Source: Myxococcota bacterium
Lineage (GTDB): Bacteria > Myxococcota_A > Polyangia > Polyangiales > Sandaracinaceae
DNA length: 64,000 nt
Assembly (NCBI GenBank): GCA_036149055.1
Contig: JAYZQJ010000007.1
Span: forward strand, 75,485-139,484
Direction of reading: 5' to 3'
Shown: positions 35,754-56,031 of the stretch, piece by piece
Layout of the letters: each line of letters opens with the position of its first letter
How positions within the stretch are numbered: position 1 is the first letter of the stretch
Translations under genes and position numbers: made by a program
Notes under the pieces: model-generated
The model's input: only the letters and a program-made list of their open reading frames with translations
Told to the model about the DNA's origin: nothing
The model's database searches: none

Positions 35754-36826
35754 GGCGCGCCCCCGGTCGCCCGCCCGAAGGCGGCCAGCACGTGGTCCAC
35801 GTCGGCGTCGGTCAGCAGCGGGTGGAGGGGGATGGCGAGGCCCTGGGTCTCGATCCGCTCGGCGTGCGGGAAGGGGCCCCCGGCCGCGCGTCCGGCCAGG
35901 CTGCCGACCCGGTGGAGGGCGTAGCTCAGCCGCCCCGCCTCGACCCCGTCCGCCCGGAGGGCCTCGACCACCGCGTCCCGATCCAGGGCGTCCGGGAGCA
36001 CCACGCCGAAGGTCTGCCAGTTGCTCTCCGCCCCGGCGACCGGCGCCTGCAGCCCGAAGCCCCCGAGCGCCTCCTGGTAGCGCGCCGCGATCGCCCGGCG
36101 GCGGGCCACGATCGCGTCGAGCCGGTCGAGCTGAGCGAGCCCCATCGCGGCCGCGAGCTCCGTCAGCCGCTGGTTGCCCGCCGGCTCCGCGAACGCGCCC
36201 GGGCCGCTGATGCCGTGGTTTCGGAGCTGCCGCAGCCGGGCGGCCAGGGCGTCGTCGTCGGTGAGGCAGGCCCCGCCTTCGCCGGTGGTGAGGAGCTTGC
36301 GCGGGTGGAAGCTGAGGCAGGCGATCGCGCCGAACGAGGGAGAGGGGCGGCCGCCGATCTCGGCCCCCAGCGAGCAGGCCGCGTCCACCACCACCGGCAG
36401 ATCGGGCAGCGCGCGCTCGACCCCGGGGTGATCGGCGGGGTTGCCGAACTGGTCGATGACGATGGCGGCCCGGGTGTCGGCGCGGCGCGCGGCGGCCAGC
36501 GCCTCCGGGCTCGCGTTCCAGCTGGCGGGGTCCACGTCGACCAGGCGCGGGGTGGCGCCGCGGCGGCAGATGGCGTGGGCGGGGCTCGGCCAGCTGAGAT
36601 CGGGGCAGAGGACCTCGCCGCCGCTCACGTCGAGCGCCTCGAGGGCGAGCTCGAGGGCCGCGGTGCCCGAGCCGCAGGCGATCGCGTGTCGGCGACCGCA
36701 GCGCTCGGCCAGGCGCGCCTCGAACGCGGCGACCCGTTCTCCCATGACGAGCATGCCGCTCTCGAGCACGGCGGCGACGCCCTCCTGCTCGGGCGGGCCG
36801 ATCCAGGGCTTCGCGAGTCGAATCAC
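35750..36826 (-). CDS. DegT/DnrJ/EryC1/StrS PLP aminotransferase
   Basis: SGTAAL, DAACSLG, SFHPRKLLTTGEGG, IPLHP. Confidence 0.9.
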   Translation of the reverse strand: MIRLAKPWIGPPEQEGVAAVLESGMLVMGERVAAFEARLAERCGRRHAIACGSGTAALELALEALDVSGGEVLCPDLSWPSPAHAICRRGATPRLVDVDPASWNASPEALAAARRADTRAAIVIDQFGNPADHPGVERALPDLPVVVDAACSLGAEIGGRPSPSFGAIACLSFHPRKLLTTGEGGACLTDDDALAARLRQLRNHGISGPGAFAEPAGNQRLTELAAAMGLAQLDRLDAIVARRRAIAARYQEALGGFGLQAPVAGAESNWQTFGVVLPDALDRDAVVEALRADGVEAGRLSYALHRVGSLAGRAAGGPFPHAERIETQGLAIPLHPLLTDADVDHVLAAFGRATGGAP

Positions 36827-36875
36827 GCGGGGAGCATACGCAATTCGGGGCCCGGGGTTGGTATACTTCGCGGCC

Positions 36876-39800: not shown

Positions 39801-41105
39801 ATGGTCGCCCCGGACTCGCGCCTCGCCTTCGAGGCCCACGAAGGGCGAGAGCAGATCCTCCGGGCGCTCGGGCGCCGAAACGAGCAGCGCAACGAGCTCG
39901 AGGCGCTCCGCGCGCTGGCGGAGCGGTCCCGGGACTCGCATCAGATCGCGATCGCCTTCAGCCGCCTGGCCCGCTTCGACCTCGACGCGGCTCGCCCCAC
40001 CGGGGTCGACGCCCTGCTCCGGCGCGCGCTCGACGCCGCCATCCAGGGTGAGGACAAGGCCTCCGAGATCGAGGCGCTGCGCCTGCTCGGCCAGCTCCGG
40101 CGTGACCAGGGTGATACCCAAGGCGCGATCGAGGCGCTCGACCGGGCCCTGGCGCGGGCCGGCCGCGACGTGGACTTCCTGAGCGCGCGCGGGCAGACCC
40201 TGGTGCAGAAGGCCATCCTGCTCTGGCGCTCCGGCCGCATCGACGACTCGCTCGAGGCGGCGGCCGAGGCGGTCGCGATCTTCCGCCGGCTGGGCCTCAA
40301 GGGACACGAGGCCCACGCCCTGTCGAGCCTCGGCGTCGCGCTCGCCCACAAGGGCAGCTTCGAGGACGCGATCTCGATGATGCGCACCTCGATCCTGCTC
40401 GATCGCGAGATCGGCGACCGGCTCCACCTCGGTCGAAAGGTATCGAACGTGGGCCAGCTTTACGCCGAGCTGGGCGACGTGGACAACGCGCTCGGGTTCC
40501 TGCAGCGGGCGCTCGACGTGTTCGAGCGGGTCGACGACCAGTCGGGTCAGTCGGACACCCTCTGCGCGATGGCGGAGCTGCTCGCGGAGCAGGTGGGCGA
40601 TCTCGAGGCGGCCGACGGAGTGCTCTCGGACGCCCGCGCCCTCGCCGAGCGCATCCAGGATCCCTACGATCTCGCGCACGTGGACCTGGTCGAGGCCGGG
40701 CTCTGGATGGAGAAGGGGCAGCCTCGCCGCGCCGAGCGGCTCGCCAAGGAGGCGGCGTCGCACGCCCGGGCGGCCGGGGCCCGGGGCTACGAGCTGCTGG
40801 CGATGGCCGCGCGCTCGGACGCGCTGGCCCGGCTCCACGAGCGGGACGAGGCCCGGCGCCTGGCGGGCGAGGTCCTGCGCACCGCGCGGGATCGCTCCGA
40901 CGTCGAGCGCGCCGACCGGGTCTACTACCAGGTCGCGGTGGCGCTCGCGCGCTGCGAGCAGCCGAAGGAGGCGGAGCGGGCCATCGCCAACGCGCGGGCG
41001 GTCGTCGACGGGCGCCTCGAGCACATCCGGGACGAGCGGCTCCGCGCCCTCTATCTCGACTCGAAGTGGGTGCGATCCATCCGGCGGGATCTACCGACTG
41101 CCTGA
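36876..41105 (+). CDS. Ser/Thr kinase - degenerate cyclase-like - STAND ATPase - TPR protein, 1409 aa
   Basis: GAGGMAEVF, VHRDVSPQN, DFG, KGKFSYMSPE; RERRNVVVV cyclase-like segment; LFGR, GELGVGKS, VDALQF, GGNPFF. Confidence 0.88.
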   Translation: MPTPSTPPPESLGRYRIVRRLGAGGMAEVFLAKSTGAEGIEKILVVKRVLPTFARSPKFISMFVDEAKVAMRLNHPNIVQVYAFEQVRDEFLLAMEFVDGLDLGRLISGARRQGRRIPAALAAYVVSEMAKGLDYAHNRKDESGVPMDIVHRDVSPQNVLLSYDGIVKIADFGIARARLVSEETGVIKGKFSYMSPEQARGQRVDRRSDVYSIGVLLAELLMNRSMYPGQQGMEVLEQVRDGKLTLPRQVDRGCPPELDEVVRRATAFDREERFQTARSLAGALSRWLHGQEEILDALDLEQFINDIAPREVTSPDGPTGGRTSGTAETHASLPHAAGRELRERRNVVVVHGRLRGEAEITGVERTGRSISDQAVRVLDDIAYKYHAILDWPEGQGKRSFRLLIGLGRVSVDDPLHAVRLAMDVLDALEGLSADLLVPLTASVGLSRGVVATVRAASGRLRYQPLEGVFEVARELGDHGEASEILATGEVFRLARRAFSFDERDVREITVTGTQAGPRRFRAYRLRGARTREERAAEALAVAGQVGLFGRSMEIQALVDAYEELVRDRQSAYFCITGELGVGKSALVAAAVDAFEPAPRLLRIECVFGSAEVPYGAVGELVREACDIPEDASAEEARRQLAETLERTLPPDARGPTADALEPLIAPIASEDPGDRSAGLIRAVRTLLAGLASGGPLVVWVDALQFTDTPSLQLMSRLMAHTYPAPLMVVLSSRADERVEELLGGVPRIDLEELDDDDRHSLVEARFGGAKVPREIQDKIVHRAGGNPFFLIELIDALLERDVVRIEGEGAAREVVRRSGAAFALPTTLEDVIAARLAELPEHERHALRWLAVTGPGLRVSELRTLTGEDLAGDLSALAERGLVQERAGGVLFFPSAVVRHVAYESIDSSDRVRMHRMMANYLTALDAVPPARLAHHREQAGDRSGAASAYLAAAQAAHLMYSHEDAMRFYGRALSMVAPDSRLAFEAHEGREQILRALGRRNEQRNELEALRALAERSRDSHQIAIAFSRLARFDLDAARPTGVDALLRRALDAAIQGEDKASEIEALRLLGQLRRDQGDTQGAIEALDRALARAGRDVDFLSARGQTLVQKAILLWRSGRIDDSLEAAAEAVAIFRRLGLKGHEAHALSSLGVALAHKGSFEDAISMMRTSILLDREIGDRLHLGRKVSNVGQLYAELGDVDNALGFLQRALDVFERVDDQSGQSDTLCAMAELLAEQVGDLEAADGVLSDARALAERIQDPYDLAHVDLVEAGLWMEKGQPRRAERLAKEAASHARAAGARGYELLAMAARSDALARLHERDEARRLAGEVLRTARDRSDVERADRVYYQVAVALARCEQPKEAERAIANARAVVDGRLEHIRDERLRALYLDSKWVRSIRRDLPTA

Positions 41106-41108
41106 CGA

Positions 41109-42278
41109 ATGCTCGCGCTGGTCATGAGCGGAGGCGGGGCGCGCGGTGCCTACGAGGTGGGAGTGCTGTCCTACCTGTACGGGCAGCTGGCGCAGAGCCT
41201 CGGCCCGCCGCGCTTCGACATCGTCTGCGGCACGAGCGTGGGCGCGATCAACGGCGCCTTCATGGCCTCGGTCGCTCACGATCCGGGCCCGGGGACCCGG
41301 CGCCTCGAGGCCCTCTGGCGGGACCTCGAGATGCCCCAGGTGCTCGGGTTCAACATGATCCAGGCCCAGCGCCTCCACCGGGTCCTGCTCGGCGGGCGGC
41401 GCGGCGCGGGGCTCTTCGACGCCTCGCCGATGACCGACATCATCCGGTCCGAGATCGACTACCGGCAGCTCGCCCGGAACGTGCGGGCCGGCCGCCTCAA
41501 GGCGCTCACCGTCACCGCGACCCACGTCCCGACCGGTCAGCCCACGGTGTTCGTCGACAAGCACCCGAGCGTGGCCCTGCCGAAGCTCTCGGCCCGCAAC
41601 GTGGTGGTGCGCACCGCGCACGTGATGCCCTACCACGTGCTCGCATCGGCTGCGATACCGATCCTCTTCCCGCCGGTCTTCATCCGGACCGATCTCTACT
41701 GCGACGGGGGGCTGCGCCTGAACACCCCGCTGGGACCGGCGATCCGCCTGGGCGCGGACCGGGTGCTCGTGATCGGCATGACCGGCCAGACCCACGACCG
41801 GGTGGAGATCCCGCCTTCGCGCTTCCCCGGCTTGCCGTTCCTGCTCGGCAAGGTGCTCGACGCGTTCCTGCTCGACCACGTGAACCTCGACATCGAGGAG
41901 CTCGAGCGGATCAACGAGCTGCTCCAGGACGGGATCGCCGCTTACGGGCCCGAGTTCCTCGACCGTGTCAACGCCGAGGCCGCCAAGCGCGGGCACCCGC
42001 CGAGGCGGCTCATCGACTCGCTCGTCATCCGCCCGAGTCGCGACATGGGCGAGATGGCCGCCGACTTCCTCCGGCGGGAGCGGGTCGCGATCCGGCGGCG
42101 CCTCGGCCGGGCGTTCCTCCGGCTGATGGACGTCGGGGAGGGGGCCGACTCCGCGGATCTGGCGAGCTACCTGCTCTTCGACGGGGGCTTCTGCTCCGAG
42201 CTGATCGAGCTCGGCCGGGCCGACGCCGCCGCCCGCCACGACGAGCTCACCGCCTTCCTGAGCCCTCGCGGGTCGTGA
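41109..42278 (+). CDS. patatin-like phospholipase
   Basis: SGGGARGAY, GTSVG (Ser), ASAAIP, DGG. Confidence 0.92.
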   Translation: MLALVMSGGGARGAYEVGVLSYLYGQLAQSLGPPRFDIVCGTSVGAINGAFMASVAHDPGPGTRRLEALWRDLEMPQVLGFNMIQAQRLHRVLLGGRRGAGLFDASPMTDIIRSEIDYRQLARNVRAGRLKALTVTATHVPTGQPTVFVDKHPSVALPKLSARNVVVRTAHVMPYHVLASAAIPILFPPVFIRTDLYCDGGLRLNTPLGPAIRLGADRVLVIGMTGQTHDRVEIPPSRFPGLPFLLGKVLDAFLLDHVNLDIEELERINELLQDGIAAYGPEFLDRVNAEAAKRGHPPRRLIDSLVIRPSRDMGEMAADFLRRERVAIRRRLGRAFLRLMDVGEGADSADLASYLLFDGGFCSELIELGRADAAARHDELTAFLSPRGS

Positions 42279-43251: not shown

Positions 43252-44670
43252 ATGAGGCACCTTGGCTTGATGACGGCGCTCGCGCTGACCTGCGCGGCGT
43301 GTGGTGAGTCCCACAGCGCGGACGCCGGGACCACGATCACCTTCGACGCCGCGCTCCCCGACAGCGGGCCGGGCGATCTCTGCGGCAACGGGGAGCTCGA
43401 CCCGGGCGAGCGCTGCGACGACGGCAACACCACGCCGGGAGACGGCTGCGACGCCGAGTGTGTGCGCGAGCCCTACTGCGGCGACGGGAGCGTCGACGGC
43501 GACGAGGTCTGCGACGACGGCAACAACGCCTCGGGCGACGGCTGCCGGAGCGACTGTCGCAGCGACGAGACCTGCGGCAACGGCATCACCGACCACGCCC
43601 GCGGCGAGCTCTGCGACGGCGAGGCCAACTGCGGCCCCGACTGCATGACGGTCCCCGGCTGCGGCGACGGCACCGTCACCGACCCCGAGGTGTGTGACGA
43701 CGCGAACACCGATCGCTGGGACGGCTGCGACGCGGCGTGTCGCGAGGAGATCGTGCTCGTGATGAGCTCCCTCGGGCTCGGCGACCGCCGGACCGGGTGC
43801 GACTTCAACGGCGACGGCAGCCCCGACAACGCCTTCGCGCGGGCCCTCGGCCTGCTGGCCACCGCGATCGGGCCGCTCATCGAGCAGCAGATCTCGAGCG
43901 GCGACCTGATCATCCTGCTCGGCATGCTCGGCCTGGACGACCCGACCGGGGTGAACGACGACGACTTCCGGATCGCCTGGATGGTCGGTGAGGACGCCGA
44001 CGGGGACCCGGACAACAACTTCACGGGCGCCGGCCAGTTCCGCGTCACCCCCGACGCCCTCGGCCCCGACGGCGCGCCGCTCACCTCCATCCAGAGCCGC
44101 GTCGCGAGCAGCGACCTGACCGGCGGGCCGGAGGACATCCCGCTCCCGATCGGCTTCCTGCCCATCGAGCTCAAGCAGGGCCGCATCGAGGGCACCACGG
44201 TGCCGGACGCGGGCGAGCTGTTCCGCATCGACGACGGTCTCCTCTGCGGTGGCATCCCGGTGAACCTGCTCGCGCTCCTCGGGGGCTTCCTCGGCGACAT
44301 GCTCGAGACCGAGCCCGCCTGCGACGGCGGCGATCCGCCGACCCTGCTCGACCTGATCATCGCCGGCGGCGAGGCGACCGCGAACTTCGGCGGCATGATG
44401 TTCCCGCTGCGCTTCAGCGCGACGCCGCCCGACCTCGACCTCGACGGCGACGGCCTCGAGGGCTTCACCATCACCTCCGACGGCCCCGACGGCTGCCAGC
44501 CGGTGGTGACCGCGTGCACCGACGGCGACGGCACCGTCATCGACGGCCGGGGCTGCTTCTCGGATCCGCGGATCGGAGACGGGCACTCGGCGGCCTTCGA
44601 CTTCACCGCCGTGCGCGGGCAGACCCTCGGAATCGCGGGAGGAACCGGCGGTCCCATGCCGGGCATGTGA
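43252..44670 (+). CDS. lipoprotein with Myxococcus cysteine-rich (DUF4215-like) repeats
   Basis: RBS GAGGAGG; AAC lipobox-like; repeats CGNG...ExCDDGN...GDGC...C. Confidence 0.85.
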   Translation: MRHLGLMTALALTCAACGESHSADAGTTITFDAALPDSGPGDLCGNGELDPGERCDDGNTTPGDGCDAECVREPYCGDGSVDGDEVCDDGNNASGDGCRSDCRSDETCGNGITDHARGELCDGEANCGPDCMTVPGCGDGTVTDPEVCDDANTDRWDGCDAACREEIVLVMSSLGLGDRRTGCDFNGDGSPDNAFARALGLLATAIGPLIEQQISSGDLIILLGMLGLDDPTGVNDDDFRIAWMVGEDADGDPDNNFTGAGQFRVTPDALGPDGAPLTSIQSRVASSDLTGGPEDIPLPIGFLPIELKQGRIEGTTVPDAGELFRIDDGLLCGGIPVNLLALLGGFLGDMLETEPACDGGDPPTLLDLIIAGGEATANFGGMMFPLRFSATPPDLDLDGDGLEGFTITSDGPDGCQPVVTACTDGDGTVIDGRGCFSDPRIGDGHSAAFDFTAVRGQTLGIAGGTGGPMPGM

Positions 44671-44713
44671 GGCTCGCGGCGGGCTCCACGGAGTGCTAGC
44701 CTCGCGGGCCTCT

Positions 44714-46012
44714 ATGCCGGGGGAGCCGCAGACGGAGCTCGACGCGGCCTGGGCCGCCTTCGTCGCGGGCCAGCGGGAGGTCGCGATCCGGCGATGCGTC
44801 GCGCTGCTCGAGGCGTCGCCGGGTCAGCTGGGCGCGGCGCTGCTGCTCACCGAGTTGCTGGCCGAGGCGCGGCCCGACGCGGTGAAGGCGACCGGGGAGC
44901 GGCTCGTGTCCGCGTTCATCGCGCGCGGAGACCTCCCTCGCGCCGTCGTCGCAGCCCGCACCCTGCCCGGCGCCGCCGCCACCAAGGCGATCCGGGCGAT
45001 CGCGGTCGCGTTCGGCAAGGGCTCGAAGCGCGTCGCCGACGTGGCCCCGGCGCCTCCGCCGCTGCCCGCGGAGACGGCGGACGCCGACGGCCCCGACGTC
45101 AGCGGCGAGGCGCTCCTCGATCGCGCGGCCGAGGCGCTCCGCACCCTCGACGTGGGCGAGCTCGATCCGGCCGCCAAGATCCCGCTGCTCCCGCTCTTCG
45201 GCGCGCTCTCGCCGCCGGCCCTGGAGCAGCTGCTCTCGGTCTGGGAGCTGCGCACCCTCGCGGAGGGCGAGGCGGCGATCCACGAGGGCACCGAGGGCCG
45301 GGACGCCTTCGTCGTGGTCCGCGGCCACCTCCGCGCCGAGCGGGGCGAGGGCGACGACGCGCTGACCCTGGCCGAGCTCGGGCCCGGCGCGCTCTTCGGC
45401 GAGATGGCGCTCGTCAGCGAGTCGCCGCGCGCGGCCTCGGTCATCGCCGCCGAGCCGGTGCAGCTCCTGGCCGCCAGTCGCGAGGCGCTCGAGAAGCTCG
45501 CCGCCAAGACGCCGGTCATCGGCCAGCAGCTCTCGGAGTTCTGCCGGGCCCGCATGGTGTCGAACCTCGTGCGCCACAGCCCGATCCTCGCCGCGGTGGG
45601 CGCGTCCGAGCGCGCCGCCCTGATGCGCCGCTTCGAGACCCGCCGCTTCAAGCCGGGCGAGCACCTCATCACCTTCGAGCAGGAGCCCGAGGGGCTGTTC
45701 CTGGTGGCGAGCGGCGCCGTCGACGTCGTCGGCCGCGACGCCGACGGGGACGCCCTGAAGGTCGCCGAGCTCGGCCCGGGCGACGTGGTCGGCGAGATCA
45801 GCCTCGTGCTCCGCCGCCCCGCCACCGCCGACGTCGTCGCCACCCACCAGACGGTCGCGCTCGAGCTCGCCGCGGAGCAATTCCGCGAGGCGATCCGCGA
45901 ACATCCCTCCCTCCTCGGTGAACTCTACGAGCTCGCCACGAAACGAGAGGACGAGATGAGGACCGTCGTCGCCCAAGAAGCCCTCGACGTCGAAGAGGTG
46001 GTGCTCCTGTGA
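44714..46012 (+). CDS. protein with two cyclic nucleotide-binding domains
   Basis: ELGPGALFGEMALVSESPRAASV and ELGPGDVVGEISLVLRRPATADV. Confidence 0.88.
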   Translation: MPGEPQTELDAAWAAFVAGQREVAIRRCVALLEASPGQLGAALLLTELLAEARPDAVKATGERLVSAFIARGDLPRAVVAARTLPGAAATKAIRAIAVAFGKGSKRVADVAPAPPPLPAETADADGPDVSGEALLDRAAEALRTLDVGELDPAAKIPLLPLFGALSPPALEQLLSVWELRTLAEGEAAIHEGTEGRDAFVVVRGHLRAERGEGDDALTLAELGPGALFGEMALVSESPRAASVIAAEPVQLLAASREALEKLAAKTPVIGQQLSEFCRARMVSNLVRHSPILAAVGASERAALMRRFETRRFKPGEHLITFEQEPEGLFLVASGAVDVVGRDADGDALKVAELGPGDVVGEISLVLRRPATADVVATHQTVALELAAEQFREAIREHPSLLGELYELATKREDEMRTVVAQEALDVEEVVLL

Positions 46013-46863
46013 TGCCGTCTCCCGTGCATCGCGCGCCATCGGAGGGTCAGCCGCTGCGCTTCGTCTTCGCTGGCGTCGCGTTCGACGTGCACCCCGCGCC
46101 CGGCCTCGAGGTCGAGGCGCCGACGCCGCTGCGCGACTTCGCGATGCCCTACGACGTGGCGCCGGTGAGCGCCCACGTGCGCTGCGCGATCCAGGGCGGC
46201 GCCGCGCCGGGCGCCCCGGGCCGTCGGGTCGACTGGCGATGGGACTCCGCGTCCTGCTCGATCTCGGCCGCGAGCTGTCGCGCCACGGTGACCCGCTCGG
46301 TGCCCGGTCACTACGCCGCCAGCCTCAGCCTCGGCGACAACCCATGGGCGCTCTCCGACGGCTTGCAGGGCGTCGCCGCCGCCGCGGTGTGTCGCGAGGG
46401 CGGTCTCATCCTTCACGCCACGGGCGTGCTCTTCGAGGGGCGCGCAGTGCTCTTCCTCGGCCCCTCGGGCGCGGGCAAGTCCACGGCCGCGAGCCTCTGC
46501 GCGGGCGCTCGCGCGTTCGCCTTCGACCGCGCCGCGGTCTACTCGACGTCGGACGGCTGGTACGCGGTCGGGCTGCCGGGGGGAGACCCGGTCGCGCTCG
46601 AGAGCGCTCCGGCGCGGCCCCATCCCGTCGGCGCCCTCCTCCGGGTGGTCCAGCGCGACGCGGTCGCCGTGCGCCGCGCCGGGACCCTGGACGCGCTCAC
46701 GCTGCTCCGCGAGTCGGCCCAGGCGCCGGGCACGCACGAAGACGAGGCGCGCTGCCTCGATGCGGTGACCCGGCTCGCGTCCGAGGTGCCGTGCGGCTTC
46801 GTCGAGACCGCGCTCGGCCACGATCTGGGGGCGGCGCTCCGCTCCATCTCGTCGGGGAGCTGA
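46009..46863 (+). CDS. HPr kinase-like P-loop kinase (RiPP-associated type)
   Basis: GGLILHATGV...AVLFLGPSGAGKST; coupled to upstream stop and to PqqD. Confidence 0.75.
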   Translation: MMPSPVHRAPSEGQPLRFVFAGVAFDVHPAPGLEVEAPTPLRDFAMPYDVAPVSAHVRCAIQGGAAPGAPGRRVDWRWDSASCSISAASCRATVTRSVPGHYAASLSLGDNPWALSDGLQGVAAAAVCREGGLILHATGVLFEGRAVLFLGPSGAGKSTAASLCAGARAFAFDRAAVYSTSDGWYAVGLPGGDPVALESAPARPHPVGALLRVVQRDAVAVRRAGTLDALTLLRESAQAPGTHEDEARCLDAVTRLASEVPCGFVETALGHDLGAALRSISSGS

Positions 46864-46864
46864 C

Positions 46865-47152
46865 ATGCCGGTCTCACTCGACACCGTCGTCGCACAGGCA
46901 GAGCGGACCGCAGCGCGGGTGATCGATGGCAAGGCCGTCGTCATCGTCATCGACAAGCAAGAGCTCCACACGCTCAACCCCACCGGCACCTTCATCTGGG
47001 AGCGGGCGGAGAGCGCGCGGTCCGTCTCGGAGCTCGTCGACCAGGTGGTCCGTGAGTTCGAGGTGGACGACGAGACCGCCAGGCGTGACGTGGTCACGTT
47101 CGTCGAGCGGCTCGTGGGCCTCGGCGGGCTGACGGTGGTGGAGGCGAAGTGA
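46865..47152 (+). CDS. PqqD-family RiPP recognition element (RRE)
   Basis: 95 aa; RVIDGKAVVI, HTLNPTGTFIWE, EFEVDDETARRDVVTFVERL. Confidence 0.9.
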   Translation: MPVSLDTVVAQAERTAARVIDGKAVVIVIDKQELHTLNPTGTFIWERAESARSVSELVDQVVREFEVDDETARRDVVTFVERLVGLGGLTVVEAK

Positions 47153-48453
47153 GCGTCGACTTCCGTCGCAAGGCGAGCGTCGCGACGGTCCTCGCGGGCC
47201 TCCGTCTCGACCCCCACGCGCCGATGAGCGCGATGGTCGAGATCGCCGACCGGTGCAACGAAAAGTGCGTCCACTGCTATCAGGTGCAGGGGCAGAAGGG
47301 CGAGCTCGACACCGAAGAGTGGAAGGCCATCTTCGACGAGCTCGCCGAGATGGGGGTGATCCTCCTGACCCTCTCGGGCGGCGAGGCCACGCTGCGCCAC
47401 GACTTCCTCGAGCTGGTCGCCCACGCGCGAAAGCTCCGCTTCTCGGTGAAGCTGTTCACCAACGGGCTCAACATGACGCCCGAGCTCGCCCGCTCGCTCT
47501 CCGAGCTGGCGGTGCAGGACATCCAGATCAGCCTCTACTCGACCCGCGCGGAGGTGCACGACTGGGTGACCAACGTGCCCGGGTCGTGGCAGCGCACGGT
47601 CGATGGCGTGCGGCACCTGGTGGCGGAGGGCCTGAGCGTCACGATCAAGTCGCCCGTCATGAGCTTCAACGCCGACGAGGTGGACGATTACATCTCGCTC
47701 GCCGAGTCGCTCGGTGCGGGCTTCATGCTCGATCCGAACCTCGACGGGACCGAAGAGGGGAGCGCCGAGCCGCAGCAGTTCGGCATCGACGACGAGACGT
47801 ACCTGCGCCTCCGGAGCCACCCGGCGCTCGTCACTCCGGTGAAGGGCGACGCCGCGCCCCCGAAGCAGCTCGAGCGATCCGTCTGCGGCGCTTGCAGCGG
47901 GCACGTCCACGTCGAGGCGAACGGCGAGATGCGTCCCTGCACGATGCTCGACGTCCCGGTGGGCGACGCCCGGCGCTCGGTCCGGAGCGCGTGGGCGGAG
48001 AACGCGCAGGGGCGCGCCATCCGCGAGCTGACCTGGAACGACCTCCATGGGTGTCGCGATTGCGACCTCCAGCCCCGCTGCGGGCGCTGCTTCGCGAGCG
48101 CGCGGCTCGAGGGCGGCGACGCGCTGGGGCCCTATCCCGGCGCCTGCCGCCGCGCCAAGCTGCATCATCAGCTCGCGACGGGGAGTGAGCCGATCATCGA
48201 CGATCCGTCGGGGCTCGGAGTGGAGACCGGGCCGTACCGACGGATCGCCGGCGACCGCTTCGAGCGCATCCCGGACCGCGTGCTCCCGACCGACGACGCG
48301 AAGGCGCGAGAGCTGAGCTGGACGCGCGGGGCGCGGACGGCGACCGCGCCGCAGCTGATCCGGCCGGGAGACCTCGTTCGAATTCGGCGCCCCGGGGCTA
48401 AGAAGTCGAAACTCGAGGCCGTACCGCCCCGGCATGAAGCGACGCCCGATTGA
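47149..48453 (+). CDS. radical SAM/SPASM-domain peptide maturase
   Basis: CNEKCVHC (CxxxCxxC), SGGE, TNG; SPASM CGAC-x14-C...CxxCxxxxxCxxC-x18-C. Confidence 0.92.
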   Translation: MSVDFRRKASVATVLAGLRLDPHAPMSAMVEIADRCNEKCVHCYQVQGQKGELDTEEWKAIFDELAEMGVILLTLSGGEATLRHDFLELVAHARKLRFSVKLFTNGLNMTPELARSLSELAVQDIQISLYSTRAEVHDWVTNVPGSWQRTVDGVRHLVAEGLSVTIKSPVMSFNADEVDDYISLAESLGAGFMLDPNLDGTEEGSAEPQQFGIDDETYLRLRSHPALVTPVKGDAAPPKQLERSVCGACSGHVHVEANGEMRPCTMLDVPVGDARRSVRSAWAENAQGRAIRELTWNDLHGCRDCDLQPRCGRCFASARLEGGDALGPYPGACRRAKLHHQLATGSEPIIDDPSGLGVETGPYRRIAGDRFERIPDRVLPTDDAKARELSWTRGARTATAPQLIRPGDLVRIRRPGAKKSKLEAVPPRHEATPD

Positions 48454-48535
48454 TTGCAGCGGCAGGTCTCATCAGTATATGAGCAACGAGCTTGAATTGG
48501 TGCCGCCCGGCGGCGCATCCGAGGGGAGGAAGCCT

Positions 48536-51500
48536 GTGTCCGTTCATCAGAAGCTGTTCTTGGTGCCGCTGGCGTTGTCGCTGGCGTTGGCCAGTGGCTG
48601 CGAGTGCGATCCGGTGACCGAGGCGTCGATCACCCTCACCGCGCCGGCCGACGGAACCACCCTGACCCTCGCGGACGACACGAACGAGGCCCTCGAGGGC
48701 CTGCAGATCGAGGTGACCGCCGACATCGTGGGCCTCGGCGCCGGCGACGAGCTCGGGCTCCGCGTGGACGGCGCGACCGCCTCCACCGCGTTCGTCGGCA
48801 CCGAGACCACCGTGCGCTTCACCGACGTCACCCTCAGCTCGGGCAGCCACACCCTCCAGGCTTTCAGCGTGGTCGGCGGGGTCACCTCGCAGGAGGTGAT
48901 GGTCACCGTCAACGCGGACTGCTTCGCGGTGAACATCGTGACCCCCGAGCCGGGGGGCGACGTGACCACCCTGGGCCCGGCCGACGACACCGACGGTGAG
49001 ATGTGTGAAGGAACCTTCGAGACCACGGTGGTGGCGTCGACCGGCGCCCCCGATGGCAGCGAGGCGCGCGTGTACGTCAACGGCACGCCGCGGCGCACCG
49101 CCCGCGTGATGGGCGGCGCGGTGCGCTTCGAGGGCGTCGCGTTCGACAACCGCGGCCCGACCCCCAACACCCTGCGCGTCGAGGTCTCGGATCCCGACGG
49201 GCTGACCTGTGACACGACCTTCGGCACCGACATCCTGGTGGACTGCGACGGAGTCAGCTGCGCGATCACGTTGCCCGATTCGGAGTCTCCGTTCCTGAAC
49301 GAGAGCGACGACCTCTACGCGGCGGACGGATTCCAGACCGACTTCGAGGTCACCACCGACGCGGACGGCGCCGGGCAGCCGGTGCGCCTCATCATCGACG
49401 GCGACAGCGTCGGGGCGCTCACCGCCACCCCGGACGGCCTCGTGGCTCGCTTCACCGAGGTGGAGCTCTCGGAGGGCGTGCACCGGGTGCGCGCGCAGTG
49501 CGTCGACGAGGTCGGCAACGTCTCCTTCTCCGGCACCGCCGAGTGGACCGTGGACGTGACGCCGTGCGGTGTCGCCTTCGTCGAGCCGACCGAGGGCCAG
49601 CTCTTCAACACCGACCTCGACGAGTCGACCCCCGAGTTCGACATCCTCTCCAGCGGCACCGCGGGCGCCGACTGCGTCGGTCTCCGGGTGGGCGCGTGCG
49701 GTGGCATCGACGCGCTTCCCTTCGGCACCGCCTCCGAGACCTGGGAGCAGCCGCTCGCGCTCGCCACGACCGCGATGCAGCAGGTGTGCGTCGAGACGCG
49801 CGACGAGGCCGGGAACGTCAGCCGCGAGATGGTCGGGATTCGCATCCGGACCGAGGCGCCGCAGCTCGAGATCGCCTCGCCCAGCGCGGGCGCTGGTTAC
49901 AACGTCATGGGCACCGCGGGCCGCACCGCCGACCTGGACCCGGGCACGCCGAGCTGTGAGGCGATGGTCGAGGTCTACTGCACCGACCCGGGCGAGATGG
50001 TGACCCTCCTCCGCGAGACGCCCTCGACCGTCATCGGCATGGCGAGCTGCGTGGCCGATGCGGGCGTGCCGGCCCCCTACGCGGGCATCGCCACGTTCAC
50101 GATGGCCGCGCTCCCGACGCAGAGCGACGGGATGCCGTACAACATCCTCGCGCGTCAGGAGGCCGACGGGCTCACCGGCACCTCCTCGCCCATCAGCGTC
50201 CGCGCCGACTGCGACGCGCCCAACCTCACGGTCACGCGGCCCATGTGCGGCGCGATGCTGCGCCCGGCGACGCAGGACGAGGACATGTCCACGCCCGGGT
50301 TCCAGTACCGGACCAACGTCGCCTACACGAACGGGCGCATGGGCGACAGCGTCGTGCTCGAGATCCGGCCGACCGGCGGCGGCGCGCCCGTCTCGCCTCC
50401 GATCATGCGCACCTTCACGTCGTCGCCGCTCGTGTTCAACGGCGTCGACTACGCGTCCGGCGGCATGCTCGACATCATCGCGACCGCGACCGACAGCGGC
50501 GGCAACGTCGCCTCGAACCCGACCTGCTCGGTCACGGTCGAGGATCTGCCGACGGTGACCCTCACCGCGCCGATGGACGGCGAGGTGCTGTCGACGGGCG
50601 ACGACTGCGACGGCGGCGCGGCCGGCCTGCAGGTCCGCGTGCAGGGCACGACCGATTCGCCGGCCGGCTCCACCGTCGCCGTCGTCATCGGCGGCAGCAC
50701 CACGATGGGCACCGTCGGCTCCGGCGGCGCGATCGACGAGTGCGTGTCCATCTCGGACGGGAGCCGCACGATCCGGGTCGAGGTCACCGACACGCGGGGC
50801 ACGGGCTCCGCGAGCGTGGCGGTCACGGTCGACACGATGCCCCCGACCACGGCCATCGACGACCTGTCGGCGACGGTCACCGACCGTCGAGGCGGCCTCG
50901 TTCGCCTCGACTGGACGGCGGTCGCGGACGCGGGCGGCGGTGACCTCACCGCGTACGAGCTGCGCTGCGCGGCGGCTCCCATCACGTCCGAGGCGGACTG
51001 GACCGCGGCGACGCCCGTCCCGGTGATGTCCGTGCCCGGCTCCGGGGGCTCGAGCGAGACCGAGGTGGTCGGCGGCTTCCGGCCCGGCGTCACCCGGAAC
51101 TGCGCCCTCCGTGGCGAGGACCCGACGGGCGCGATGACGCCGCTGCCGGCGTCGAGCACCACGATCACCGTGTCGTTCCTCCAGCAGGAGGTGACCAGCG
51201 GCACCCCGACGGCCAGCCGCTTCGGTGTCGACGTGGCCGCGGTCGGCGACGTCAACGGCGACGGCATCGACGACGTGCTCGTCGGTGGCCAGGGCGAGGC
51301 CTTCCTCTACTTCGGCTCGGCGACGGGGCTCGGGGCCACCGCGAGCGTCTCGTTCCCGGCCGCGGGCGGCAGCCTCAGCCACGGCCGCGAGGTCGCGGGC
51401 CTCGGCGACTTCAACGGCGACGGTCGCCCGGACTTCGCCATCACCGACCGTGAGCTCACCGTGGGCGGCGAGTCGTTCCAGGGCGCGGTCTACGTGTTCT

Positions 51501-52567
51501 TCGGACGCCCGAGCACGACCCCCTGGCCGAGCACCGTGGCCACCGGGGCCACCGGACCGGGTCCCTTCGTCTGCAGCGGCGCCGACCTCTGCTTCGTCGG
51601 CGACGACGGAGTGCCCGGCTCGGGAGCCGACACGTTCGGGCTCCTCGGCTGGTCGGTCGCCCCGGCGGGTGACTTCGACGGCGACGGCTTCATGGACCTC
51701 GCGATCGGCGCGCCCTTCGCGGGGGGCTCCGGCCGCGCCTACATCCTGCTCGGCGACAGCTCCTTCACCTCGGGCTCGGCCATCTCCGTGCCCGGCACCG
51801 GGAGCGGTCCGCAGGGCTTCTTCGTCCAGGCCACCGGCGCGATGTACTCGCAGCTCGGCAACGTGGTCGAGACGCTCGGCGGCGACCTCGGCGCCGACAT
51901 GCGGCAGGACATCCTCATCGGCGCGGCGGGCCGCACCGGCGGCAGCCCGATCCCGGCGGCGGTCCTCTTCCTCGGTGGGCGTGCCCACGCGGGCGGCGGC
52001 CTCACCAGCATCGCTCCGGCCGGCCTCCAGGTCCTCGGCACCGGCCAGGCGAACTCCTTCGGGATCGCCATGTCGGGCGCCGGTGACATCAACGGCGACG
52101 GCATCCTGGACGCCCTCGTGTACGAGAACGCGCTCAACAACCGCGGGCAGGTCACTGCCTACCTCGGCAGCGCGACCGGGTTCACGGGCGCGACCACCTT
52201 CACCTACACGAACGACACGCCGGGCCCGAGCAACGACCGCTTCGGCCGCTTCATGAGCATCGGGCGTCACCCGGCGTTGATGCTGCTGTCGGACATCGAT
52301 GGAGACCGCGTCTCGGACGTGGTACTCGGGTCGGTGGAGAGCGAAACGATGCCCGGCACCAGCGCCCTCTTCTACCGCTCCATGTCCTCCTCCTCTCAGG
52401 TCCGGTCCGCTCGTGACGTGCAATTCGGCTCCGCGAGCACCACGGCGGCGACCGACGGTTTCCGACCGACGTTCGTCGGTGACGTGAACGGGGACGGCGC
52501 CGCGGACATCGCAATCGCAGACCCCGCTTTCATGTCGAACCAGGGCCGTGTTCTGGTTCAGTACTGA
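48536..52567 (+). CDS. large lipoprotein with Ig-like/FN3-like domains and a 7-bladed FG-GAP (integrin-alpha-like) propeller, ~1343 aa
   Basis: GTG 48536 after RBS GGAGGA; lipobox LASGC; seven GD(V/F/I)(N/D)GDG-type repeats in the C-terminal third. Confidence 0.85.
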   Translation: MSVHQKLFLVPLALSLALASGCECDPVTEASITLTAPADGTTLTLADDTNEALEGLQIEVTADIVGLGAGDELGLRVDGATASTAFVGTETTVRFTDVTLSSGSHTLQAFSVVGGVTSQEVMVTVNADCFAVNIVTPEPGGDVTTLGPADDTDGEMCEGTFETTVVASTGAPDGSEARVYVNGTPRRTARVMGGAVRFEGVAFDNRGPTPNTLRVEVSDPDGLTCDTTFGTDILVDCDGVSCAITLPDSESPFLNESDDLYAADGFQTDFEVTTDADGAGQPVRLIIDGDSVGALTATPDGLVARFTEVELSEGVHRVRAQCVDEVGNVSFSGTAEWTVDVTPCGVAFVEPTEGQLFNTDLDESTPEFDILSSGTAGADCVGLRVGACGGIDALPFGTASETWEQPLALATTAMQQVCVETRDEAGNVSREMVGIRIRTEAPQLEIASPSAGAGYNVMGTAGRTADLDPGTPSCEAMVEVYCTDPGEMVTLLRETPSTVIGMASCVADAGVPAPYAGIATFTMAALPTQSDGMPYNILARQEADGLTGTSSPISVRADCDAPNLTVTRPMCGAMLRPATQDEDMSTPGFQYRTNVAYTNGRMGDSVVLEIRPTGGGAPVSPPIMRTFTSSPLVFNGVDYASGGMLDIIATATDSGGNVASNPTCSVTVEDLPTVTLTAPMDGEVLSTGDDCDGGAAGLQVRVQGTTDSPAGSTVAVVIGGSTTMGTVGSGGAIDECVSISDGSRTIRVEVTDTRGTGSASVAVTVDTMPPTTAIDDLSATVTDRRGGLVRLDWTAVADAGGGDLTAYELRCAAAPITSEADWTAATPVPVMSVPGSGGSSETEVVGGFRPGVTRNCALRGEDPTGAMTPLPASSTTITVSFLQQEVTSGTPTASRFGVDVAAVGDVNGDGIDDVLVGGQGEAFLYFGSATGLGATASVSFPAAGGSLSHGREVAGLGDFNGDGRPDFAITDRELTVGGESFQGAVYVFFGRPSTTPWPSTVATGATGPGPFVCSGADLCFVGDDGVPGSGADTFGLLGWSVAPAGDFDGDGFMDLAIGAPFAGGSGRAYILLGDSSFTSGSAISVPGTGSGPQGFFVQATGAMYSQLGNVVETLGGDLGADMRQDILIGAAGRTGGSPIPAAVLFLGGRAHAGGGLTSIAPAGLQVLGTGQANSFGIAMSGAGDINGDGILDALVYENALNNRGQVTAYLGSATGFTGATTFTYTNDTPGPSNDRFGRFMSIGRHPALMLLSDIDGDRVSDVVLGSVESETMPGTSALFYRSMSSSSQVRSARDVQFGSASTTAATDGFRPTFVGDVNGDGAADIAIADPAFMSNQGRVLVQY

Positions 52568-52576
52568 GGAGAGACG

Positions 52577-52741
52577 ATGCACAGGGATCGCTCCACCGAG
52601 GAGCGCGAAGAGCGCTCGACCCCCTACGTTCCGCCTGCCATCGAGGAATCGGCGAAGTTCGAGACCCTCGCCCTGAGCTGCGGAAAGGTCCCGGGCGACG
52701 GCACTCCGCAGTGCGAGGTCTTCAACCCGACCCAGAGCTGA
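52577..52741 (+). CDS. putative RiPP precursor peptide, 54 aa (not in ORF track)
   Basis: Hand translation MHRDRSTEEREERSTPYVPPAIEESAKFETLALSCGKVPGDGTPQCEVFNPTQS; RBS AGGAG upstream; fills the gap between two + genes; YxxPxI RRE-binding-like motif. Confidence 0.85.
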   Translation: MHRDRSTEEREERSTPYVPPAIEESAKFETLALSCGKVPGDGTPQCEVFNPTQS

Positions 52742-52754
52742 CCCTCAGCCGGCC

Positions 52755-53687
52755 ATGGTGACCCTCTGCGACGAGCTCGTGGTGGACGCCATGGTGGCGA
52801 CCCTGCAAGCGGACGGCGAAGCCACCGTCCGCCTGTGGGGTCGCAGCATGCTCCCCACCTTCTGGCCCGGAACACGCCACCGCGTGGAGGCTTGCGAGCC
52901 CGAGGACGTCAGGGTCGGCGACGTGGTCGTGATCCGGAGGGGGCCCGGGGTCACGGCCCATCGCGTCGCGGCCGTCGACGGCGGGGACCTGGCCGTGAAG
53001 GGAGATCGCTTCCCCCGGGAGGGCGCGCTCTCGGTCCCGGCCGGCGCCGTGCTCGGTCGGATCACTTCCGTCCCGGTGGGTCCGATCGCGATCTCACTGC
53101 CCGCCTCGCTCGGCCGGCGCGTCCATCGAGTGATGGCGCCTCTGCTCGCGAGCGCCCAGCCGGGCGTCGAGCGATCGATGGTGTGGGGCCGCGCCGTCCA
53201 GCGCGAGCTGCTCGCGCGCTCGATCCCGCTCCGTCGGCGGGCGCTCCCGTGGCGCGTAGAGCGCCTGAGCGAAGCGCACCTGCCGCGGATCCGCGCCGCG
53301 CTGCATCGGCGTGGCGTCCGCGCGGAGCGTCGAGACCTCGAGCGCTGGCAGGAGCTCGCCCGCGCAGAGCTCCCCTTCGCCATGGTGGCGACCGGGCGGC
53401 GCGGACGGGTCGTGGGGTGGATCCGCGCCGACCAGGGCTCCGACGGAGAGGTAGAGCTCTACGACCTCTGGGTCGAGAGGCTGCACCGTCGGCTGGGCTT
53501 GGGCTCGGCGCTGATGGGGGCGGCCGAGGCGCGCGCGTTCGCGCTCGGGGCCGCCCGGGTGACCGCCGACACCTCCGAGGCGCGCGGAGACATCCTGCGG
53601 CTCTTCGCGACGCGCGGGTTCTCGGCCACCACGGACGCGTCGGTCGGCCCTCGCCACCGCCGCTACGCGAGAGCCCGCGAGCGGTGA
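52755..53687 (+). CDS. S24/S26 (signal peptidase I-like) peptidase fused to GNAT acetyltransferase
   Basis: GRSMLP, GDVVV, AHRV, KGD; C-terminal LWVERLHRRLGLGSALM acetyl-CoA motif A. Confidence 0.82.
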   Translation: MVTLCDELVVDAMVATLQADGEATVRLWGRSMLPTFWPGTRHRVEACEPEDVRVGDVVVIRRGPGVTAHRVAAVDGGDLAVKGDRFPREGALSVPAGAVLGRITSVPVGPIAISLPASLGRRVHRVMAPLLASAQPGVERSMVWGRAVQRELLARSIPLRRRALPWRVERLSEAHLPRIRAALHRRGVRAERRDLERWQELARAELPFAMVATGRRGRVVGWIRADQGSDGEVELYDLWVERLHRRLGLGSALMGAAEARAFALGAARVTADTSEARGDILRLFATRGFSATTDASVGPRHRRYARARER

Positions 53688-54613
53688 GCTCGAGGCACGT
53701 CGCGCTGGCGATGATCGCGGCCCTGGGCGCGGTCGGCGTCTTCCTCTGCCGCGAGGACCCGTCGACCGCGGTCGCTCTCGCGGTGGCGGGGACCTGCGCG
53801 GCCATGCTCGCGTGGCGGCCGGGGACACGACCGCGCCCCGCGCTCGACGACGCGCTGCGCTCGCTCGACGCGCGCATCGAGGCGGCGGCGGAGGAGCGGC
53901 ATCGGATGAGGCTGGCGGCGGAGACCGCGGGGCGCTTCCGAGAGGAGTTCGTCGCCGCGGTCCGGCACGAGCTGAAGACGCCGCTCAACGCGATCCTCGG
54001 GTTCAGCGACGTCTTGCTGCACGACGTCGACGGGCCGCTCTCCGACGCGCAGCGCGAGGACGTCGAGGCGATCCGCTCCGCCGGAACCTATCTCCAGGAC
54101 CTCGTGGAGGCGGTGCTCGCGGAGTGGGTGCCCTCCCGCGACACCCCGGAGCCGCTGGCGCCGGTCGATCTCTGCGCGCTGGTGCGGGAGGTGGCGCGCC
54201 TGCTCGAGGGCCAGCTGCCGGGGAGCGCCATCCGCCTGGAGCAGCGGGTGTCCGACGACACGCCGGCGCCGATGGCCGACGCCCGGCGGCTCCGGCAGGT
54301 GCTCATCAACCTCGGCACCAACGCGATCCGCGCCACGCGCCAGGGCGCCATCACCCTCGAGGCCGCGCCGCACGAGGACGGGGTGCGCCTCACCGTGCGC
54401 GACACCGGGGCTGGCATCGCCGAGGCGGACCTGCCGAAGCTCTTCGAGGAGTTCACCCAGCTCGGCGCGCGCGAGGGGCGGCGCGGCGGGACCGGGCTCG
54501 GCCTGGCGCTCACCCGTGATCTCGTCGAGTGGCACGGCGGGCGGATCGAGGTGGAGAGCGAACTCGGCGTCGGCTCCGCGTTCCACGTCCTCCTGCCGAC
54601 GCAGGCCGACTGA
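53684..54613 (+). CDS. membrane sensor histidine kinase
   Basis: HELKTPLNAI, INLGTNA, DTGAGI, LFEEF, GTGLGL. Confidence 0.92.
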   Translation: MSSRHVALAMIAALGAVGVFLCREDPSTAVALAVAGTCAAMLAWRPGTRPRPALDDALRSLDARIEAAAEERHRMRLAAETAGRFREEFVAAVRHELKTPLNAILGFSDVLLHDVDGPLSDAQREDVEAIRSAGTYLQDLVEAVLAEWVPSRDTPEPLAPVDLCALVREVARLLEGQLPGSAIRLEQRVSDDTPAPMADARRLRQVLINLGTNAIRATRQGAITLEAAPHEDGVRLTVRDTGAGIAEADLPKLFEEFTQLGAREGRRGGTGLGLALTRDLVEWHGGRIEVESELGVGSAFHVLLPTQAD

Positions 54614-56031
54614 TGAGGGCGGTGGGTCGGAGCGTCGCGCTCGTCGCGATCGCCACCGTGATCGAGGTCGCGCTGCTGGTCGGCCTGTCGATCGGCTTCG
54701 GCGTGCGTGTGCCGCTCCTCAACGCCGGGATCCTGCTCGGGGCGGTGAACGTGCTCGGCGGCGTGCTCGCGCTCCGGGCCACCCTGACCGGCGCGCCGTG
54801 GCCCGCGCTCCGAGCGGCGTCGATCCCGCCGGCCGCCGGGCTGCTCTTCCTGCTCCCGAGGATCTGGGTGGGCACGCACGCCGCTCCGGCGCTGACCCTC
54901 GGCGTGCTCCTGCTGGCGGCGGTTCCGGTGGAGCGCGCGTGGCGGCGGTGCTGGCGGCTCGACGGAGGGCCGGGCGTCGAGGCGCTGGCGGCGGGCGCGC
55001 CCCTCGCCGCGCTCGGGGCGATCTGCGCGGCGCCGCTCGGGCCGGCGTTCGGCCTGATCACGCTCGGGCTGGCCGCGGCGCTGGCGGTGCGGGGATGGCG
55101 GGCCGCGCGGCGCCGCGCGCGAGAGGAGCGGACGTACGCCGACTTCCTCGACCGCATCGAGGTGCGCCCGGACGCGCTGATCCGGCCGCCGGTGCCGTCG
55201 CTGCGCGACCGGGAGCTGCGCGCCCTCGACGCCCGGCTGGCTCAGCGGGCCGAGGAGCTCTCCGCCGAGGCGAAATCGGACGCGCTCGCGCGGGCGCAGA
55301 TCGAGGACGCGCGGGCGCTCCGCACCCGGTTCATGGCCGCCATGAGCCACGAGCTCCGCAGCCCGCTGAACTCGATCGTCGGCTTCGCGCAGATGCTCGA
55401 GCGAGGCATGGAGGGCGCGCTCACCGACGGGCAGCGCGAGAGCGTGACGATGGTGCGGCGCAGCGCCGAGGAGCTGATCACCCTGCTCACCGACATCCTC
55501 GATCTGGCGCGGCTTGAGGCCGGGCTGCTCGAGCTGCGCCGCCAGTGGACGCCTTCGGTGGAGATCCTGACCCAGGCGGTCACGCGCGCGCAGGGCCTGG
55601 TCGAGGGGCGCGAGGTCGAGATCGTGGCCGAGCTGCAGCCGGGGCTGCCCCCGGTGCACGTCGACCAGCGGCGCATCGTGCAGGCGGTGGTCGCCCTCTT
55701 CCGGCATTCGGCCTCCTCGCTGTCGAAGACCCGCATCCGGCTCCGCGCGCGCGTGGCCTACGGGCCGCCGGGCCCCGAGCGGCACCTGCGGGTCGAGATC
55801 CACGACGCGATCGGGGCCATCCCGCCCGAGGAGGTGGAGCGCATCTTCGAGGCGTTCCAGGAGATCACCGAGCCGGCGGGGCGCCGGGTGGGCGGCCTCG
55901 GGATGGCGCTCTCGCTGGCGCGCGGGCTGGTCCGGTCCCACGGCGGCGAGGCCTGGGCCGACAGCTTCCCGGGCGCGGGTACGATCCTGTGCGTCGCCAT
56001 CCCGCTCGACGCCGAAGACGCGGAGCCCTAA
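54613..56031 (+). CDS. membrane histidine kinase with degenerate ATPase boxes
   Basis: SHELRSPLNSI intact; N box ALFRHS, G1 DAIGAI, G2 GLGMAL. Confidence 0.82.
   Translation: MRAVGRSVALVAIATVIEVALLVGLSIGFGVRVPLLNAGILLGAVNVLGGVLALRATLTGAPWPALRAASIPPAAGLLFLLPRIWVGTHAAPALTLGVLLLAAVPVERAWRRCWRLDGGPGVEALAAGAPLAALGAICAAPLGPAFGLITLGLAAALAVRGWRAARRRAREERTYADFLDRIEVRPDALIRPPVPSLRDRELRALDARLAQRAEELSAEAKSDALARAQIEDARALRTRFMAAMSHELRSPLNSIVGFAQMLERGMEGALTDGQRESVTMVRRSAEELITLLTDILDLARLEAGLLELRRQWTPSVEILTQAVTRAQGLVEGREVEIVAELQPGLPPVHVDQRRIVQAVVALFRHSASSLSKTRIRLRARVAYGPPGPERHLRVEIHDAIGAIPPEEVERIFEAFQEITEPAGRRVGGLGMALSLARGLVRSHGGEAWADSFPGAGTILCVAIPLDAEDAEP

Follow-up and report, generated by a model that had tools for sequence, protein, structure and literature searches.

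A conserved peptide gene linked to a radical SAM/SPASM enzyme and a kinase in Myxococcota and Acidobacteriota

A 54-codon open reading frame (ORF) in the DNA of a Myxococcota bacterium is confirmed by sequence comparison as a real, conserved gene. It probably encodes the precursor of a RiPP, a peptide synthesized on the ribosome and then chemically modified, a reading that, with the maturation steps proposed below, best explains the data as a whole. The cassette joins two separately described chemistries, the leader-kinase-peptidase module of linear polyphosphorylated peptides (LPPs) and lasso peptides, and a radical SAM (rSAM)/SPASM enzyme, in a large and apparently undescribed peptide pathway that is a variant of LPP/lasso-type RiPP logic. 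No paper describing the family or its product was found in a search of literature that included few subscription journals (the supplements of PMC10288494 may list these enzymes), and a term search of the survey PMC13642348 returned nothing specific to the family.

The precursor gene and its operon

The peptide gene belongs to an operon in the window, i.e., the whole 64,000-nucleotide stretch analyzed, whose genes overlap or nearly abut and all lie on the forward strand:

46009..46863, + strand: HprK/PEPCK-fold kinase, aligned over loci (weak matches to ScmC and HprK-related kinases, below cut-off)
46865..47152, + strand: discrete RRE of the PqqD family (PF05402, E 1.7e-17; best PDB matches 9x90, 9x8z and 5v1u)
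47149..48453, + strand: radical SAM/SPASM maturase (PF04055, PF13186; no NCBIfam family at cut-off)
48434..52567, + strand: large lipoprotein with Ig-like domains and a C-terminal FG-GAP, integrin-alpha-like beta-propeller (PF01839, PF13517, PF19077)
52568..52571, + strand: ribosome-binding site GGAG, 5 nt before the ATG of the precursor ORF
52577..52741, + strand: precursor peptide gene, ATG start, 54 codons, 54 aa; RRE motif Y17-x-x-P20-x-I22, then F28-E29-T30, A32-L33, Cys35, Lys37, Cys46 and terminal Ser54
52755..53687, + strand: fusion of a soluble SipW/archaeal-type S24/S26 peptidase (TIGR02228, E 5e-6, below cut-off) and a GNAT acetyltransferase domain (PF00583, E 7e-13)

None of the operon proteins reaches a named NCBIfam cut-off. 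The first-pass annotation had given the ORF its own ribosome-binding site, and the GGAG is indeed there, directly after the stop codon of the 4.1-kb lipoprotein gene; this abutment suggests that the two genes are translationally coupled. The translation, with PYVPPAI, FETLALS and ten residues between Cys35 and Cys46, also reads as first reported. The leader, described then as acidic, is of mixed charge (eight Glu/Asp against six Arg/Lys), and the ORF described as hidden does fall below the gene-track cutoff, although the exact protein is already gene-called in NCBI nr and in Logan (30 contigs). Its third-codon-position GC is 0.85, compared to 0.89-0.94 in five neighbor genes, and it is present in a single copy in the source genome. 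Pfam and NCBIfam hold no family for the precursor or for eight of its relatives, its Atlas neighbors are unnamed clusters, and a PDB search with the peptide profile returned one match, judged to be chance.

The motif itself is common by chance: YxxP occurs in 740 of the 55,133 source-genome frames of 40-100 aa, 137 of which also have two later Cys, so the case for the ORF rests on conservation. That the ORF is spurious or untranslated, which these chance frequencies alone might favor, is hardly credible given protein-level conservation across phyla, a fixed stop position and synonymous codon variation at every conserved residue (Leu33 uses all six Leu codons). The full family pattern, YxxP-x7-FExxAL[SA]-C-x-K..C..S-stop, matches a single one of 120,230 source-genome frames, but it was written only after the family had been seen.

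Part of the stretch is found in eleven RNA runs from four studies, and eight of these contain at least half of its words; runs X9-X11, at 0.05-0.06 of the words, were not counted as evidence. In all four runs examined, from two studies, contigs cover the precursor ORF, and one contig spans 45929-53336; such contigs show presence, with DNA carry-over possible, and not level, strand or translation. Contig cover is low at 55177-55627 and carries no information on the operon ends. A promoter/terminator scan gave nothing at the operon and one sigma-70-like site at 42351.

Family, linkage and conservation

The family, with 1,032 clusters at 50% identity in a peptide profile search and at least 591 rSAM matches in a genome scan, is large, common in soil Acidobacteriota and Myxococcota, represented in other phyla and without a curated family. 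The peptide profile finds a match in 29 of 201 sampled genomes of the phylum and in 13 of 41 relatives (the source genome is counted in both); 12 of the 13 peptide-bearing genomes among the 41 relatives have a strong kinase match. A quick tree of 51 rSAM proteins places the source enzyme, with full support, in a clade of 17 Polyangiales-like Myxococcota proteins, its nearest relatives being records named Sandaracinaceae. The cassette has a cultured host, Granulicella mallensis (L079). A plasmid search with one Acidobacterial locus gave no match.

The peptide search yielded 49 loci, with 57 confirmed among 248 candidate stretches. Within 9 kb of the peptide, these 49 loci hold rSAM in 42, kinase in 42, peptidase in 45, RRE in 36, NTP_transf_5 in 28 and an ABC-2 pair in 28, as counted with profiles seeded partly from those same loci. 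Seven loci lack rSAM: five are cut by contig ends, and two (L030 and L045) are not. The invariance of FETLALSC in this search was rejected as evidence because FETLALSC was the search seed, and the test was therefore repeated from the enzyme side. Three loci plus the best 80 of the at least 591 rSAM matches, minus L052, which has no cassette gene, gave 82 loci recruited by the rSAM gene alone, and 65 of these (six repeating peptide-search loci) contain the peptide. Among the other 17, seven lie near contig ends (L062 ambiguous) and ten have full flanks; all ten genomes with a full-flank, peptide-less cassette carry the peptide elsewhere. The family of FETxALxCGK peptides that the first-pass annotation had mentioned exists and is linked to both rSAM and RRE genes.

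Residue counts come from the 61 rSAM-recruited peptides, 60 of which were parsed. Tyr and Pro, which like the first Cys were required by the parser, are present in 60 of 60; the Pro-to-Phe spacing is 7 in all 60, and the second Cys is found in all. The positions of Glu29 and Thr30 are kept in 49 and 50, Ala32 in 56, Leu33 in 58 and Lys37 (Cys+2) in 56, and position 34 is Ser in 27 and Ala in 26 (Ser/Ala in 53). Thr30 is not invariant, since distant peptides have Arg there in 16 of 26; Lys37 is missing from most of the distant members and from several of the close relatives. The Cys-Cys spacing is variable, 6-10 residues in most family peptides. The terminal Ser occurs in 56 of the 61 peptides and in 146 of 150 database matches.

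Several copies depart from the pattern. The peptide at L059 is without the Cys motif, the L144 copy is without the second Cys, and the L146 copy is degenerate; a remnant precursor tail sits at the cassette position in L103 (7936-8145), and the precursor ORF at L193:1414-1725 runs past the usual end. A record titled Kiloniellales contains, at L045:8953-9111, a stretch resembling the end of a family peptide (YxxP...FETLALSC...S); it has no good start codon, lies among short phage-like genes with no cassette gene within 9 kb, and may be a captured fragment. The distant cassettes L181:6826-9987 and L182:7037-9627 have an rSAM protein with only three Cys in its C-terminal part (twitch-like), Leu for Phe28 in the leader and no large neighbor gene.

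Proposed leader recognition, cleavage and phosphorylation

The closest known system is the LPP pathway of Bacillota, lppA-K-B-S-D-N (Popov et al., 2026; PMC13381572). LPP precursors read YxxPxVLxHQxIxFETxxS; the RRE protein LppB binds YxxP through Asn33, Asp70 and Phe74; LppS, a SipW-type peptidase (Ser29, His68, Asp93), cuts after FET (Thr-1) and needs both the Ser/His/Asp residues and the RRE; and LppK phosphorylates Ser3 (PMC13381572). The window's cassette shares the YxxP...FET leader, the discrete RRE with Asn/Asp/Phe, the HprK-like kinase, the SipW-type Ser-His-Asp peptidase and the lack of a cyclase. An NTP transferase and an ABC exporter, which in LPP clusters is MsbA-like, accompany the peptide in many family loci (28/49 NTP_transf_5, 28/49 ABC-2 pair) but are not part of the window's operon; the nearest match to PF14907 is on contig C69. 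Unlike LPPs, the family adds the rSAM/SPASM enzyme and two near-invariant Cys, has a Pro-to-Phe spacing of 7 rather than 9, a short core, an exported propeller neighbor and hosts in other phyla, and has a terminal Ser but no phospho-acceptor Ser at +3 (58 of 60 peptides have Leu at +3, and +4 is Ser in 27 or Ala in 26). The main text of the LPP paper does not contain the words "radical SAM"; its table includes 14 Acidobacteriota/Myxococcota peptidase rows outside the LPP cluster, with the precursor not determined (PMC13381572).

The leader conforms to YxxPx[LVIFA] (Y17-P20-I22) and is encoded alongside the RRE, in which Asn38, Asp75 and Phe79 correspond, at the same spacing, to the three YxxP-binding residues of LppB and are conserved in 104, 107 and 88 of 110 sequences, respectively. 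By analogy with the solved LppB and lasso B1 complexes, the RRE would bind Y17-x-x-P20-x-I22, the step predicted with high confidence. The first-pass proposal that a lasso-type leader serves an rSAM pathway is supported.

The peptidase has the triad Ser31, His69 and Asp84, and its family motifs are nearly constant: GxSMxP and HR occur in 109 of 111 sequences and GD in 108. Following LppS, its likeliest cut would be after F28-E29-T30, an assignment that stands at about an even chance; cleavage after L31, A32 or S34 is the alternative. A cut after Ser34 is ranked below one after Thr30 because the LPP paper shows LppS cutting after FET. The first-pass annotation had overlooked a possible cut after FET, which would place LALS in the core, and was silent on Ser54, the kinase and the S24/S26 peptidase. 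After leader removal, the fused GNAT domain may, speculatively, acetylate Lys37 or the new N-terminus.

Terminal Ser54 is the likely kinase site in the family, as judged from covariation. Family kinases generally keep His, the P-loop Lys and Asp-Glu, and in all 89 peptide loci whose kinase has Asp-Glu/Asp the peptide ends in Ser; altered kinases pair with peptides in which this Ser drifts. The window's kinase keeps His136, Lys157 and Asp173, but Arg174 replaces the second catalytic acid, and in its clade this residue is Arg, Lys, Gln or His in all 11 peptide-paired kinases, while the terminal Ser is kept in 6 of the 11 peptides (the frameshifted L130 is left out). Among further relatives, the terminal Ser is kept in four and absent in three (G237, L186 and G220, whose ORF runs on), and at L180 a distant kinase without the first Asp is paired with a peptide without the terminal Ser. 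From the sequences, the covariation amounts to essentially one evolutionary event, most of it within a single clade. Kinases of the PadeK type act on a C-terminal Ser and require His-Lys-Asp-Asp (PMC9266682); the corresponding motif is His-Lys-Asp-Glu in the family and ends in Asp-Arg in the window. In most of the family, the kinase would act like PadeK on paeninodin and phosphorylate the terminal Ser, which a nucleotidyltransferase may then extend.

In the window's clade, this step may be weak or lost: replacement of the second acid together with Ser drift suggests relaxed kinase activity. A pseudokinase, or a kinase of changed role, that leaves the local product unphosphorylated is a serious possibility here, if somewhat short of an even chance; the altered acid in 11 of 11 clade kinases, the losses of the terminal Ser and the L180 pair speak for it, but His, the P-loop Lys and the first Asp are intact, the peptides of the window and its nearest relatives still end in Ser, and four of the Ser-losing peptides have a Ser one residue from the end. 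The source genome also has a second, orphan Asp-Arg-type kinase paralog near a contig end (G000:C27:260-1453, minus strand, L218; 38% identical), beside which no match to the peptide, RRE or peptidase profiles was found, and a same-genus genome has another orphan of this type (G211:C101:274650-275417, L217).

Phosphorylated lasso peptides (paeninodin, PadeK; pseudomycoidin, PsmK/PsmN) resemble the family in their RRE-bound leader, kinase, conserved C-terminal Ser and NTP_transf_5, and the sulfotransferase and APS kinase genes of some family loci extend the likeness (PMC9266682). The family differs from them in having neither a macrolactam cyclase nor a B2 protease nor a conserved acceptor acid. 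By these analogies, its recruitment, phosphorylation and cleavage steps would follow those of the LPP and phosphorylated lasso pathways, while the family is a member of neither.

Radical SAM chemistry and the exported neighbor

Recruited via the RRE, the rSAM/SPASM enzyme would join a backbone carbon to the sulfur of Cys35, of Cys46 or of both. Thioether rings are its likeliest product, a prediction from sequence that we rate somewhat better than even. The protein has CxxxCxxC and seven SPASM Cys that are invariant across 16 aligned enzymes, plus an eighth, Cys249, in the window's copy; its best PDB matches are SkfB, then PqqE, and MftC is among the top NCBIfam matches. NCBIfam scores are 95 bits for StsB (cut-off 625), 87 for SkfB (300) and 58 for AlbA (850). 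Six active-site-proximal residues (Y44, S76, F103, S128, T265 and M266; our own mapping, after PMC10288494) are identical in three cases to SkfB (with two conservative changes), in two each to StsB and PqqE, and in one to CteB, a weak comparison in which the Acidobacterial orthologs differ at three of the six positions.

An alpha-thioether (sactionine) fits best because the acceptor side chains around both Cys vary freely. Of the acceptors proposed by the first-pass annotation, Asp41 is disfavored, since any Asp/Glu follows the first Cys in only 14 of 60 peptides; Acidobacterial members have counterparts of Thr43 (36 of 59) and of Asn50 (26 of 59), whereas the window's closest relatives have none. 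A candidate is Ala32, invariant or nearly so and three residues before Cys35; this putative pairing would give a four-residue ring like those of streptosactin, where four-residue sactionine rings have precedent (PMC9389541). Like the sactipeptide and ranthipeptide maturases (SkfB, StsB, CteB and streptosactin GggB), the system has an RRE-dependent rSAM/SPASM enzyme, a Cys-bearing core and a partial active-site match, although its enzyme scores far below all family cut-offs, and the cited descriptions of those pathways include no lasso/LPP-type leader, kinase or signal-peptidase-like protease (PMC10288494, PMC9389541).

Several observations weigh against thioethers. The rSAM protein matches no characterized family at cut-off, the active-site comparison is weak, with the Acidobacterial differences given above, and the L059 relative is without the Cys motif. 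Thioether-forming SPASM enzymes are expected to have an open iron site, which Cys249 could close. Two Cys at a variable spacing fit a disulfide equally well. The rSAM enzyme of the same cassette might instead do other chemistry (oxidize or decarboxylate the terminal Ser, form a C-C link involving Lys37, or epimerize a residue), with the Cys pair forming a disulfide after export or binding metal and a cut after Ser34 freeing an N-terminal Cys. This is possible but rather unlikely: the PqqE and MftC matches and the prevalence of Lys at Cys+2 (56/60) favor it, whereas the active-site residues lean to SkfB/StsB, Lys37 is lost in part of the family, as noted above, and the rSAM-recruited peptides have no conserved aromatic residue for a C-C link. 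On the cleavage side, signal peptidases follow a small-residue -3/-1 rule, which A-L-[S/A] before Cys35 fits (Ala in 56/60, Ser/Ala in 53/60), and the Ni-SOD maturation protease has a weak match, below cut-off (E 6.6e-4), to one peptidase of the family.

The modified product would probably act at the cell surface with the co-encoded propeller lipoprotein. The longest ORF of the lipoprotein is 1377 aa; the likely start, GTG 48537, was picked by eye and leads to a lipobox-like Cys. A confident model of its C-terminal 464 residues (914-1377; pLDDT 89.4) forms an integrin-alpha-like propeller, with integrin alpha heads as best Foldseek matches (E 2e-15). The slot beside the peptide is occupied by three types of exported protein with propeller or propeller-like domains: FG-GAP, an unannotated Acidobacterial type (its model, pLDDT 63.6, matches propellers) that looks unrelated to it, and CBM96/PQQ-like. 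The modified peptide might be a dedicated small subunit or ligand of this neighbor, by analogy with QhpC in amine dehydrogenase, an idea compatible with either chemistry that we hold only tentatively and consider unlikely. Besides the three slot types, it draws on the position of the FG-GAP gene, whose end directly precedes the peptide gene in 9 of 10 loci from close relatives, on the joint duplication of peptide and large gene in L076 and L106, and on the off-cassette copies: after exclusion of a degenerate match and of one truncated at a contig end, 14 of the 16 peptide matches outside the cassette remain, of which 11 have the Acidobacterial-type large gene within 1.5 kb and one has an enzyme gene. 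Against it, six of these 11 orphan pairs are convergent and not co-transcribed, and the orphan genomes are probably kin rather than independent; the large gene lies within 1.5 kb of the peptide in only 19/49, 30/61 and 15/26 of the other sets, complete cassettes exist without it (L181, L182, L002), and the window's operon has no exporter.

The quinohemoprotein amine dehydrogenase system (qhp) is the model for this idea: there, a small peptide with rSAM-made thioether links and a cleaved leader becomes a subunit of large exported proteins (PMC7876137). Unlike qhp, the window's system has no heme subunit (no cytochrome family was found among the operon proteins), no Trp in its precursor for a quinone cofactor, no conserved Asp/Glu acceptors and a different protease. 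It is conceivable, if again improbable, that the pathway supplies a large exported beta-propeller protein, of integrin-alpha-like type in Myxococcota, with a mini-subunit or ligand that is stapled by thioethers and phosphorylated on Ser; the peptide and the propeller would then be variable cargo, and RRE, rSAM, kinase and peptidase a shared workshop acting also in trans. If true, this would make a RiPP a component or switch of a surface protein instead of a diffusible metabolite, and the propeller link offers a way into the binding partners of bacterial integrin-like proteins and the role of phosphorylated RiPPs. The rSAM reaction, cut site and product are within reach of expressing four small genes in E. 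coli.

A lasso peptide with a Cys35-Asp41 macrolactam, matured by enzymes encoded elsewhere, is very improbable. Asp41 is seventh from Cys35, the Y17-to-T30 spacing equals that from W-15 to -2 in the paeninodin-type leader, and the source genome has Asn_synthase and Transglut_core3 matches; but its six Asn_synthase matches are neither on the window's contig C7 nor among the operon proteins, its single match to the B2-type PF13471 is on contig C128, and the annotated conserved neighbor families include no cyclase or B2. An acid at 7-9 from the first Cys occurs in 7 of 60 peptides (3 of 60 counted after FET), and Asp41 fits only in the window's copy.

The uncharacterized SynChlorMet, GeoRSP and HPr-rel cassettes (TIGR04248-04251, TIGR04302-04303, TIGR04352) likewise combine an HprK-like kinase, PqqD and rSAM/SPASM, and ScmC is the best kinase match, yet all scores are far below cut-off and the precursor matches no model. 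Coverage of the family by these models was ruled out (ScmC 22 of 125 bits, ScmD 34 of 100, ScmE 105 of 400, GeoRSP 98 of 400).

Other genes near the cassette vary. The stop codon of a double cNMP-binding protein gene (window 44693-46012) overlaps the kinase start; such a gene also precedes the kinase in L001, L002, L003 and, by clustering, L047, and it may be co-regulated with the operon. The operon is also flanked, at 36441-41105, 41109-42278, 43252-44670 and 53690-56031, by genes for a Ser/Thr kinase-TPR protein, a patatin, a cysteine-rich repeat protein of myxobacterial type and two histidine kinases, with no evident link to it. The tailoring genes next to the peptide differ among loci and comprise a sulfotransferase with APS kinase, methyltransferases (one peptidase-fused, one PRMT-like) and a second peptidase-GNAT fusion, at the following positions:

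L051:15520-17242
L011:5441-6436
L001:9137-10219
L017:2228-2893
L185:7445-8617
L002:9126-10118

Among the Acidobacterial-type loci of L001-L132, 50 have only the ABC-2 permease, 27 only the large exported protein, five both and 13 neither; the two are nearly mutually exclusive in cassette loci, which may be a lineage effect.
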